Shown here piece after piece: positions 1,553 to 1,593 of a stretch of 31,035 nt of DNA. The translations under genes and the position numbers were made by a program. Each line of letters begins with the position of its first letter. The first letter of the stretch is position 1. Below the pieces are notes generated by a model, which saw only the letters and a list, made by a program, of their open reading frames with translations, was not told where the DNA came from and did no database searches. Origin of the DNA: a virus; UHGV virus genome UHGV-0099061, one strand, 5' to 3'.

Positions 1553-1593
1553 ACAAAATGGCATTGTTTCAGCAGTGCCATTTTGTTATAAAG
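1553..1593. promoter_or_regulatory. palindromic promoter/operator-like element: ACAAAATGGCA-12 bp-TGCCATTTTGT followed by TATAAA
   Basis: Perfect 11-bp inverted repeat seen directly; TGtTATAAA extended -10-like hexamer ~35 nt upstream of ATG 1628; same CCATTTTGT core recurs elsewhere in window. Confidence 0.5.

Follow-up and report, generated by a model that had tools for sequence, protein, structure and literature searches.

The window, by which we mean the whole stretch of DNA analysed here (31,035 nucleotides, virus genome UHGV-0099061), is an E. coli prophage of the mEpimmI type (mEp010/mEp021-like) that has been cut by IS903. Positions 1-55 are the end of IS903, which truncates the prophage, and positions 55-4000 show 84-87 % identity to mEp010, mEp044, mEp554 and MagusPhagus. 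PMC11893012 describes the mEpimmI group as E. coli phages that depend on Nus and are not lambdoid, with mEp010, mEp021 and their relatives as members; it documents an N-like antitermination system for the group, covers its repressor, nut sites, terminators and Q, lists 48 complete mEpimmI genomes and includes a plasmid for Rep expression, pRep021. We found no promoter in the mEpimmI annotations or in the searched parts of that paper.

The gene order was taken from an intact and nearly identical prophage, L002, which resides in E. coli 2017C-4173W12. Its CI-like repressor gene is followed by the early rightward operon and then by NinG and RusA; next comes a Q protein of the lambda type (PF03589, E = 1.3e-29 in Pfam), located about 4 kb upstream of the element that is the subject of this analysis. 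Between Q and the element lie about 14 small genes. Past the element there are further small genes, the lysis genes (holin, lysozyme and Rz) and finally those for the head and the tail, with several minus-strand accessory genes inserted among the tail genes. The first gene downstream of the element starts at ATG 1628, and its 92-aa product matched no Pfam family above threshold. The features recognised at the element are the following:

1531-1546, no strand assigned: degenerate CRP-like palindrome cGTGAtctaccCCGCA, the left boundary of a conserved module of 64-76 bp
1548-1553, minus strand: TAAACT, -10-like hexamer of a possible leftward promoter with a predicted start at ~1541, under the CRP-like site
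1553-1561, plus strand: ACAAAATGG, putative upstream promoter element resembling a proximal UP subsite (~-46 to -38), forming most of the left arm
1553-1563: left arm of the palindrome, ACAAAATGGCA
1553-1595, plus strand: RNA hairpin with a U-rich tail, possibly a weak intrinsic terminator when transcribed from upstream
1564-1569, plus strand: -35-like hexamer TTGTTT, within the 12-nt spacer (loop) of the palindrome
1564-1575: spacer of the palindrome, ttgtttcagcag, 12 nt
1576-1586, plus strand: right arm TGCCATTTTGT, where the 9-mer is present a second time in inverted form; it falls in the putative promoter spacer and supplies the TG at 1584-1585
1587-1592, plus strand: putative -10 hexamer TATAAA, 17 nt past TTGTTT, with a predicted start at ~1599-1600
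1615-1906, plus strand: RBS GGAGGG (1615-1620) and the first gene predicted to be served (ATG 1628, 92 aa)

The perfect 11-bp inverted repeat with a 12-bp spacer, reported at 1553-1563 and 1576-1586 by an earlier note, is correct in every detail, and it extends to 14-nt arms (1553-1566 and 1573-1586) with one T.G position and 6 nt between them. The same applies to what was said of its surroundings. TGtTATAAA directly follows the repeat, as TGTTATAAA occupies 1584-1592 with TG at 1584-1585 and TATAAA at 1587-1592, and the ATG at 1628, placed about 35 nt downstream, lies 35 nt past the TATAAA hexamer. The proposed 15-nt identity to a second copy was likewise recovered: GCCATTTTGTAAACT is present exactly at 1548-1562 on the minus strand and at 20861-20875 on the plus strand, and with one mismatch at 22454-22468. 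When up to 3 mismatches are allowed, the window contains 6 matches to GCCATTTTGTAAACT against 1.43 expected, and none of 100 shuffles reached 6.

The two arms are inverted copies of a single 9-mer, ACAAAATGG / CCATTTTGT, spaced 25 bp from centre to centre. The core CCATTTTGT has 9 copies in the window compared with 0.55 expected (0 of 100 shuffles reach 9), and the count in 40 kb of L002 is 13. Judged by these counts of the 15-nt motif and of the 9-mer against shuffles, the repeat is genuine and well outside what chance would produce. Another inverted pair of the 9-mer, missed in the earlier note, is located just upstream of the tape-measure gene (17858-17866 / 17883-17891). Both pairs have an identical 16-nt gap and unrelated spacers. 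Other arrangements also occur, among them single copies, a pair with a 57-nt gap at nutR2 and a convergent pair at 20863/20934. Scanning viral and genome contig collections for exact occurrences of short stretches of the element gave nothing but chance hits in organisms without any relation to the phage group.

Predicted promoter elements and the conserved module

We collected 38 homologous copies of the element from E. coli genomes, phages and IMG/VR, which yielded 19 distinct 34-mers. The conserved unit reaches from the palindrome containing GTGATCT to the -10. Ten E. coli genomes share with the window only positions 1522-1597, and both flanks carry different genes, which means that conservation covers everything between the CRP-like site and the -10, as long a stretch as a class-I promoter occupies, and is not confined to a hairpin with its tail. 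Next to the cassette we saw at least three different genes on the downstream side and several on the upstream side. In the phage mEp021, neither the element nor the pair of genes at 1628-2057 is present, and from this joint absence the element and these genes appear to behave as an optional inserted accessory unit with a predicted promoter of its own.

Read rightward, the element has the layout ACAAAATGG-ca-TTGTTT-17-TATAAA with TG at -15/-14, and we consider it probable that it is a compact sigma-70 promoter cassette, in which the 9-mer acts as a UP-like element, while the spacer and the extended -10 come from its mirror copy. The TATAAA hexamer agrees with the consensus at 5/6 positions: the A at -11 is present, and A replaces T at -7. 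Relatives carry TATAAA or TATATA, and single copies have TGCATA, TACAAA or TATACA; the first two of these, each seen in single relatives, are damaged -10 hexamers and count against the promoter reading. The TG dinucleotide (T1584, G1585), one base before TATAAA, is invariant in 19/19 variants, and TG at -15/-14 together with TATAAA fits the extended -10 rule. The -35 is weak. TTGTTT matches TTGACA at 3/6 positions with a 17-nt spacer, which is below the 4-of-6 threshold for the -35 in our consensus promoter scan, so that the scan left the site unlisted; like the missing T at -7, this counts against the promoter reading. TTG is kept in 17/19 sequence variants.

For the part upstream of the -35, the consensus of the proximal UP subsite is AAAAAARNR (PMC4132738), and ACAAAATGG matches it at 7/9 positions while lying at -46 to -38 for a start at 1599. 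By its position and approximate sequence, the 9-mer could thus be the proximal UP subsite contacted by RNA polymerase through its alpha subunit's C-terminal domain. Rightward transcription would then start near 1599 and serve the genes from 1628 on, providing their expression in the prophage. The second, inverted 9-mer would fill the promoter spacer (-21 to -13) and provide the TG of the extended -10, and the palindrome would be the outcome of this arrangement.

The CRP-like site forms the upstream end of the module. In the window, cGTGAtctaccCCGCA agrees with TGTGA-N6-TCACA at 7/10 positions and was not found by a scan allowing up to 2 mismatches; in the relatives L004, L252 (E. coli M1/5), L262-L270 and L275 the site is perfect (10/10). 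Its centre (1538.5) is placed at about -60.5 from the predicted start at 1599, which is itself uncertain by +/-1. Class-I CRP sites are expected near -61.5, -71.5, -82.5 or -92.5 (PMC4132738), and within the +/-1 uncertainty of the start the centre in the window agrees with the position seen in class I CRP-dependent promoters. Matching centres occur at -60.5 of the predicted leftward promoter at 17.8 kb (17906.5) and, in L002, at -60.5 of the putative pL, which is followed by nutL, and at -59.5 of the predicted promoter before nutR2. As a class, CRP-like sites are not enriched in the window (17 vs 13.8 expected), which, like the degeneracy of the window copy, speaks against the promoter reading; what favours a CRP role is the coinciding position near -60 and the perfect sites of the relatives. 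A CRP-type site at about -60.5 would add class-I activation to the promoter, and the window copy may be a degenerate form of an ancestral site.

Among known systems, the element can be compared with class I CRP-dependent sigma-70 promoters of the lac P1 type that have a UP-like proximal subsite. It shares with them a TGTGA-N6-TCACA-type site at about -60.5, an A-rich stretch from -46 to -38, a -35-like hexamer, a 17-nt spacer and TAnnnN, and the conserved module spans exactly the CRP site to the -10. It differs in that its upstream part is one identical 9-mer reused at many predicted promoters rather than a generic A-tract, its spacer is filled by an inverted copy, so that the core is palindromic, and its CRP site is degenerate.

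The earlier note proposed a regulated or bidirectional promoter. A rightward promoter agrees with our results, given an architecture shared with pR and three accessory-gene promoters and a paralogue facing the gene at 17807 (see below), while bidirectionality is only possible. The leftward mirror reads ACAAAATGG-ca-CTGCTG-16-TAAACT, with CTGCTG as a poor -35. The minus-strand 9-mer at 1586 does not fit the -35/-10 pattern of the family, and no gene lies downstream of the leftward half. A leftward promoter may exist but would be the weaker one. The arrangement resembles the divergent pair pR/pRM of lambda in having opposed -10-like hexamers 33 bp apart, predicted starts about 58 bp apart, and an element that is at ~-42 of one promoter and at ~-16 of the other. 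In our case, however, the leftward promoter of the pair combines a poor -35 with the lack of a gene to express, and the regulator sites are putative.

Related cassettes at pR and at accessory genes

We oriented every copy of the 9-mer as ACAAAATGG and inspected the sequence downstream. Of the 10 occurrences of [A/C]CAAAATGG in the window, 4 have N1-2, TTnnnn, N17 and TAnnnN after them. With a background of 0.6 % per position this corresponds to a binomial P of ~3e-7, which has to be discounted as the pattern was defined post hoc. Each of the four patterned copies points into a gene start (1628, 17807, 20791 and 22440) located 29-45 nt past the predicted transcription start. Besides the element itself, these are:

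17846-17914, minus strand: paralogous cassette with TGTGATCTGTGCATCT (17914-17899), ACAAAATGG (17891-17883), TTTACT (17881-17876), 17 nt and TATAAG (17858-17853)
20825-20870, minus strand: same architecture, ACAAAATGG-c-TTCACA-17-TATATA, toward a 51-aa gene (ATG 20791) and then a ParE-like toxin gene
22480-22551, minus strand: same architecture, TGTGATCTGCGTCACG, then CCAAAATGG-a-TTGATC-17-TATATT (copy at 22525), toward a 62-aa ORF (ATG 22440)

The first of them is the closest relative of the element. When the element (1526-1640, plus strand) was aligned with the whole window, the best alignment was to 17918-17800 read on the minus strand, with a local score of 49 against 15.5 +/- 2.4 in 2000 shuffles (maximum 28); the plus-strand reading scores 36. 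The similarity takes in the upstream GTGATCT, the two 9-mers and the -10, and continues with GAAGCTrAAG, within the part predicted to be transcribed first. According to this alignment, the two palindromes of the window are copies of one cassette in opposite orientations. The layout at 17.8 kb, ACAAAATGG-c-TTTACT-17-TATAAG with a predicted start at ~17846, is directed toward ATG 17807 on the minus strand, the start of a VasI/TagO-like gene (PF11319). Here, the counterpart of the 'rightward' orientation of the element faces a minus-strand accessory gene, and the cassette is the sole upstream DNA available to that gene. It is kept before the tape-measure gene in ~38 distinct IMG/VR relatives, whatever its left flank, and three relatives with different left flanks have a minus-strand gene for a secreted protein there (MKRLAK..., MKQLAK...).

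The three minus-strand genes (17807, 20791 and 22440) are antisense to the late operon and therefore need promoters of their own in these gaps. Given the shared cassette architecture, the 15-nt copy at 20861-20875 is best understood as the upstream element of the predicted leftward promoter of the toxin unit.

The same layout appears in the immunity region of L002. There, ACAAAATGG-a-TTGACT-17-TATATT (9-mer at 6530) has the repressor gene on one side and the N-like gene on the other, and a boxA-like GCACTTTAAAAA is located ~50 nt downstream, an order that would be expected of pR followed by nutR1 (nut sites of mEpimmI phages are described in PMC11893012). We also noticed two candidate pL promoters in L002, TTGATC-16-TAAACT and TTGATG-16-TATTTT. 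Taken together, the cassette family seems likely to be reused throughout mEpimmI-type prophages, at pR as well as at the promoters of accessory genes. As pR has to fire on unmodified host RNA polymerase alone at infection, a UP-like element recognised by the host would be the simplest role of the 9-mer.

Several observations do not sit easily with this promoter reading. A generic UP function leaves the identity of the 9-mer across sites unexplained, which shared descent or a specific protein could explain. At the putative pL and at the predicted promoter before nutR2, the 9-mer adjoins -10-like hexamers in the opposite orientation. One role for all copies of the 9-mer may therefore not hold. 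Finally, the genes downstream of the element are co-oriented with the upstream operon, and read-through alone could express them.

The last point is also where the element departs from the moron promoters of temperate phages, morons being units of promoter, gene and terminator inserted in lambdoid and HK97-like genomes. As with morons, the accessory genes behind the cassette are found in some relatives and not in others, and the cassette type is predicted to drive three accessory units on the minus strand within the cluster of tail genes. In contrast to morons, the genes inserted with the element share the direction of the operon, so that a promoter is not strictly required, and no clear plus-strand terminator closes the unit, the hairpin at 2061-2080 being without a plus-strand U-tract.

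The hairpin and possible termination

RNA transcribed through the element from upstream can be folded into a hairpin. The full 34-nt stem-loop of the plus strand has -19.7 kcal/mol (z = -6.3) and that of the minus strand -14.4 kcal/mol. Within it, an inner 22-nt hairpin (1559-1580, -11.6 kcal/mol) comprises 4 G-C, 1 G.U and 4 A-U pairs and is followed by the tail UUUUGUUAU. In mEp010 (GenBank PP180001), the homologous 45 nt are annotated as 'Rho-independent terminator predicted by ARNold, T8'. The element could accordingly be viewed as primarily a Rho-independent terminator that ends the paralogue array and stops early transcription that has not been antiterminated. The complementarity of its outer A-tract and U-tract would be what one usually sees at a terminator, perhaps one that works in both directions, and the N-like Gp17 system would read through it. 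This reading we regard as possible yet doubtful. Besides the T8 annotation, it draws on the position of the element 26 nt past a stop codon, on the greater stability of the plus-strand hairpin and on the N-like antitermination system documented for the group in PMC11893012.

We scored the hairpin with a formula of the d'Aubenton-Carafa type, combined with modern energies. The inner stem with its tail scores positive (d = +5.6, T-score 3.9; +8.2 for the commonest variant), but this is well below the +18 at 3820, where a t5-like terminator precedes the holin gene, and the +58 of the terminator at 29464. When the full 14-bp stem is formed, the tail becomes UAUAAAG and the score drops to -35.6. 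The terminator scan of the window did not list the element.

When the 19 variants are compared, 98.9 % of cells pair, no variant alters the T.G position, and the loop is where the variation is concentrated; the five stem pairs that vary change only to G.U on the plus strand, as would suit an RNA hairpin. However, G.U-type variants (CCGTTTTGT, CCATTCTGT) are found also at copies of the 9-mer outside hairpins. We counted 0 compensatory double changes and saw no excess over shuffles, for which the 19 variants hold too little variation. Searching the whole window on both strands against Rfam gave no family at gathering score.

Three further observations argue against a terminator as the primary function. 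The arms are explained by motif copies that recur where a terminator is implausible. In the sister palindrome (17858-17891) the arms stand equally far apart, yet a GC-rich inner stem is missing. Conservation continues for 22 nt upstream of the hairpin, as far as the CRP-like site, and a terminator would have no use for this stretch. Intrinsic terminators, including T8 of mEp010, resemble the element in the GC-containing inner stem, the 4-6-nt loop, the 3' U-run with a complementary 5' A-run and the location after a stop codon. They differ from it in that the element has only 4 G-C pairs, a marginal score, arms made of a motif present at non-terminator sites and conservation extending further upstream.

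Coming back to the promoter cassette, a weak terminator role is possible alongside it, as the two functions are not mutually exclusive, but it is unneeded to explain the repeat. As a secondary function, RNA derived from upstream could fold the arms and, with the U-tract, terminate a part of the read-through that is not antiterminated. The suggestion that an RNA hairpin serves as an attenuator for the upstream array is thus half retained: the hairpin itself is compatible with the data (-19.7 kcal/mol, T8), while attenuation is not, since the hairpin lies downstream of the array and could at most keep read-through from reaching the genes that follow.

The 9-mer as a possible protein-binding site, and possible Q-dependent transcription

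We also considered that the 9-mer is the site of a specific DNA-binding protein and that the palindrome is a two-site operator switching both divergent promoters, an explanation we regard as unlikely. The candidates for such a protein are the CI-like Rep repressor, a small protein annotated in RefSeq as a MarR-family regulator, for which we obtained no Pfam match, and a host factor; the scattered copies would then form a regulon. Some properties of the 9-mer are in line with this. It is exact at many unrelated intergenic sites (9 vs 0.55 expected in the window, 13 in 40 kb of L002), the copies of the immunity region are in the putative pL and directly upstream of the -35 of pR, and the two inverted pairs keep an identical 16-nt gap with unrelated spacers. 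In addition, dual regulators such as lambda CI at OR2 use a geometry in which one site falls near -42 of one promoter and near -16 of the promoter facing the other way.

On the other side, the spacing of the two pairs is already explained by promoter geometry: 25 bp is the distance from -42 to -16.5, so that both palindromes would have the same spacing without a dimeric binding protein. The 25-bp spacing is also unlike the 14-18-bp dyads of CI/Cro-type HTH dimers at immunity-region promoters; the 9-mer is no dyad in itself and stands singly at the putative pL and at pR. Single copies and other spacings occur elsewhere (the 57-nt gap at nutR2, the convergent 20863/20934). The description of the palindrome as operator-like is hence not borne out, as its arms are 25 bp apart from centre to centre and the 9-mer is found singly as well. 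A better operator candidate is a separate 8-bp inverted repeat at pR, TTGACTCG-N22-CGAGTCAA, which the element does not have. As for host factors, we know of no convincing match between the 9-mer and the consensus sites of TyrR, CpxR, IHF, FNR or DnaA.

Another parallel is offered by the stoperators of mycobacteriophage L5, which are likewise a short asymmetric motif with ~10 copies per genome, mostly intergenic and including early promoters. Unlike the stoperators, which keep to one orientation, the 9-mer is present in both orientations, including inverted pairs, which speaks against a specific protein of this kind. Its fixed position relative to the -35 and -10 points to RNA polymerase and not to a roadblock, and the repressor here is a CI/LexA-type dimer. 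In its widest form, the idea would be that one protein of phage or host origin switches pR, the element and the accessory promoters of the tail operon together, with the palindromes (here and at 17858-17891) acting as two-site direction switches that double as terminators. We give this a small chance of being right; if true, it would be a genome-wide promoter regulon of a kind undescribed for the recently defined mEpimmI family.

The presence of a lambda-type Q protein (PF03589) encoded ~4 kb upstream in the intact relative raises the question of whether the element is a Q-dependent late promoter, equivalent to pR', with the repeat as the Q-binding element. The Q-binding element of lambda lies between the -35 and the -10, as does the repeat here, and the element is the first sizeable non-coding gap past the Q gene in those relatives. 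Nevertheless, such a role is very improbable. The phage mEp021 has Q but is without the element, the 9-mer is found also at early promoters, and ~2.2 kb of small genes separate the element from the lysis genes. A better candidate is TTTGTA-18-TAAAAT (3764-3793) with a predicted start at ~3800 and, ~20 nt downstream, the terminator at 3820-3838, which occupies the position of TERM_5/t5 immediately before the holin gene.

A sigma-54 promoter was rejected as well: TGGCA-N7-GC, formed by the left arm and the loop, has the right GG/GC spacing, but GC is changed to GT or TC in L002, L248, L253 and L261.

If the sigma-70 promoter cassette is accepted, its signature (ACAAAATGG, 1-2 nt, -35, 17 nt, -10) would locate pR and the promoters of accessory genes in these common gut prophages, the genes concerned being those of the VasI-like protein, the ParE-type toxin unit and small proteins. 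The same rule would predict which prophage genes may respond to cAMP-CRP. It also suggests some caution with automatic annotation, as a terminator annotated in this way (T8 of mEp010) may instead be a promoter or have that function as well. Outside the mEpimmI group, the element is an ordinary bacterial arrangement of promoter and terminator, unsurprising in its mechanism and useful for annotation.

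Left end of the prophage and the flanks of the cassette

The prophage is truncated at the left edge of the window by the end of an insertion sequence that P7, HK022 and many E. coli replicons carry at 98-100% identity; the repressor, the early genes and Q therefore lie outside the window or have been lost. The features on either side of the putative palindromic promoter cassette are the following.

1-55, end of an IS903 (IS5-family) element
355-579, 576-791, 801-1058, 1069-1308 and 1311-1526, five small head-to-tail ORFs of 71-85 aa
2061-2080, hairpin GGGGCCGGATGGCCCC with a U-tract on the minus strand only

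The five ORFs correspond to what the earlier note called a paralogue array. Their copy number varies between relatives (window 355-1526), and the member checked against Pfam, ORF 1311-1526, returned no family. Downstream of the cassette, the start of the 92-aa gene (1628-1740) shows 74% DNA identity to genes of rV5-like virulent phages (Vequintavirinae), so unrelated phage groups share the gene that the cassette would serve. The same opening sequence, ATGAAACG (MKR), is found in the genes at 1628, 17807 and 20791. As its U-tract lies on the minus strand only, the hairpin at 2061-2080 resembles a terminator for transcripts running leftward. In mEp021 the place of the cassette and the two genes (1628-2057) contains nothing but a similar hairpin, GGGGCC-AAAT-GGCCCC.

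Homopolymer runs of variable length adjoin the cassette in two relatives: upstream in L251, where a C12 run stands in place of the CRP-like site's right half, and downstream in L004, where a G13 run lies within the 5′ leader. Either these runs are noise from sequencing or assembly, or the tracts are prone to slippage.

The 17.8-kb cassette and accessory genes in the tail cluster

Two stretches of accessory genes on the minus strand are located inside the tail cluster, the first of them next to the paralogous cassette at 17.8 kb.

16763-17807, minus strand, VasI/TagO-like protein (PF11319, E = 1.2e-15), then a 124-aa protein
17858-17896, plus strand, mirror half of the 17.8-kb cassette, CCATTTTG-TATAAA with a poor -35 (TCGTTG)
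29506-29808, minus strand, 100-aa ORF

The mirror half faces the tape-measure gene, and its predicted start falls under the conserved half-site AGATCACATTT. Conservation of the non-coding element that precedes the tape-measure gene extends over its full 100 bp in about 38 distinct relatives. Judged by eye, the N-terminus of the 100-aa ORF resembles a lipoprotein signal peptide. Lpp superinfection-exclusion proteins are described in PMC11893012, and this ORF may be a counterpart of the proteins covered there.

Further promoter-like sites in the window and in relatives

Other sites in the window, two of them overlapping the promoter-associated 9-mer, are as follows.

20885-20897, perfect 13-bp palindrome CATTGTGACAATG, upstream of the 51-aa / ParE-like unit
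22523-22531 (region 22523-22551), rightward, predicted extended -10 promoter TGGTATGAT into tail genes
29907-29915 (region 29888-29915), rightward, predicted extended -10 promoter TGGTAGAAT into tail genes

A toxin-antitoxin pair may regulate itself through the palindrome, which would then be its operator. The palindrome is flanked by two facing promoter-like sites, at 20862 (+) and 20934 (-), an arrangement which suggests convergent promoters. Both extended -10 promoters overlap a copy of the 9-mer, and each has as its neighbour one of the window's two top CRP-like sites, CGTGACGCAGATCACA (22536) or TGTAACACAGATCACA (29888), both with a single mismatch.

Comparable sites were noted in the nearly identical intact prophage L002 and in L006.

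L002 6440-6545, minus strand, inverted 9-mer followed by TATACT, beside the early promoter pR
L002 14013-14160 and L006 20079-20230, nutR2 antitermination region, two oppositely oriented 9-mers with 57 nt between them

The TATACT near pR points leftward to the bidirectional terminator of the repressor gene, GCCGCCATCCGGCGGC, about 100 nt away; this could yield a small RNA, read leftward, that recalls lambda oop. Between the paired 9-mers of nutR2 are the predicted terminator t4 and a CRP-like palindrome. BoxA GCTCTTTAAAAA follows the rightward copy (TTGTTT-16-TATACT) at a distance of about 20 nt, which suggests that nutR2 is served by its own promoter.

Candidate late promoter before the holin gene

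3764-3793, TTTGTA-18-TAAAAT, predicted start at about 3800
3820-3838, strong hairpin with U-tract, immediately ahead of the holin gene (ATG at 3863)

From its sequence, 3764-3838 looks like a putative late promoter under Q control, accompanied by its terminator. The initially transcribed region contains a -10-like TAACAAT, and the hairpin, about 20 nt downstream of the predicted start, occupies a position equivalent to the terminator TERM_5/t5 of mEp021.
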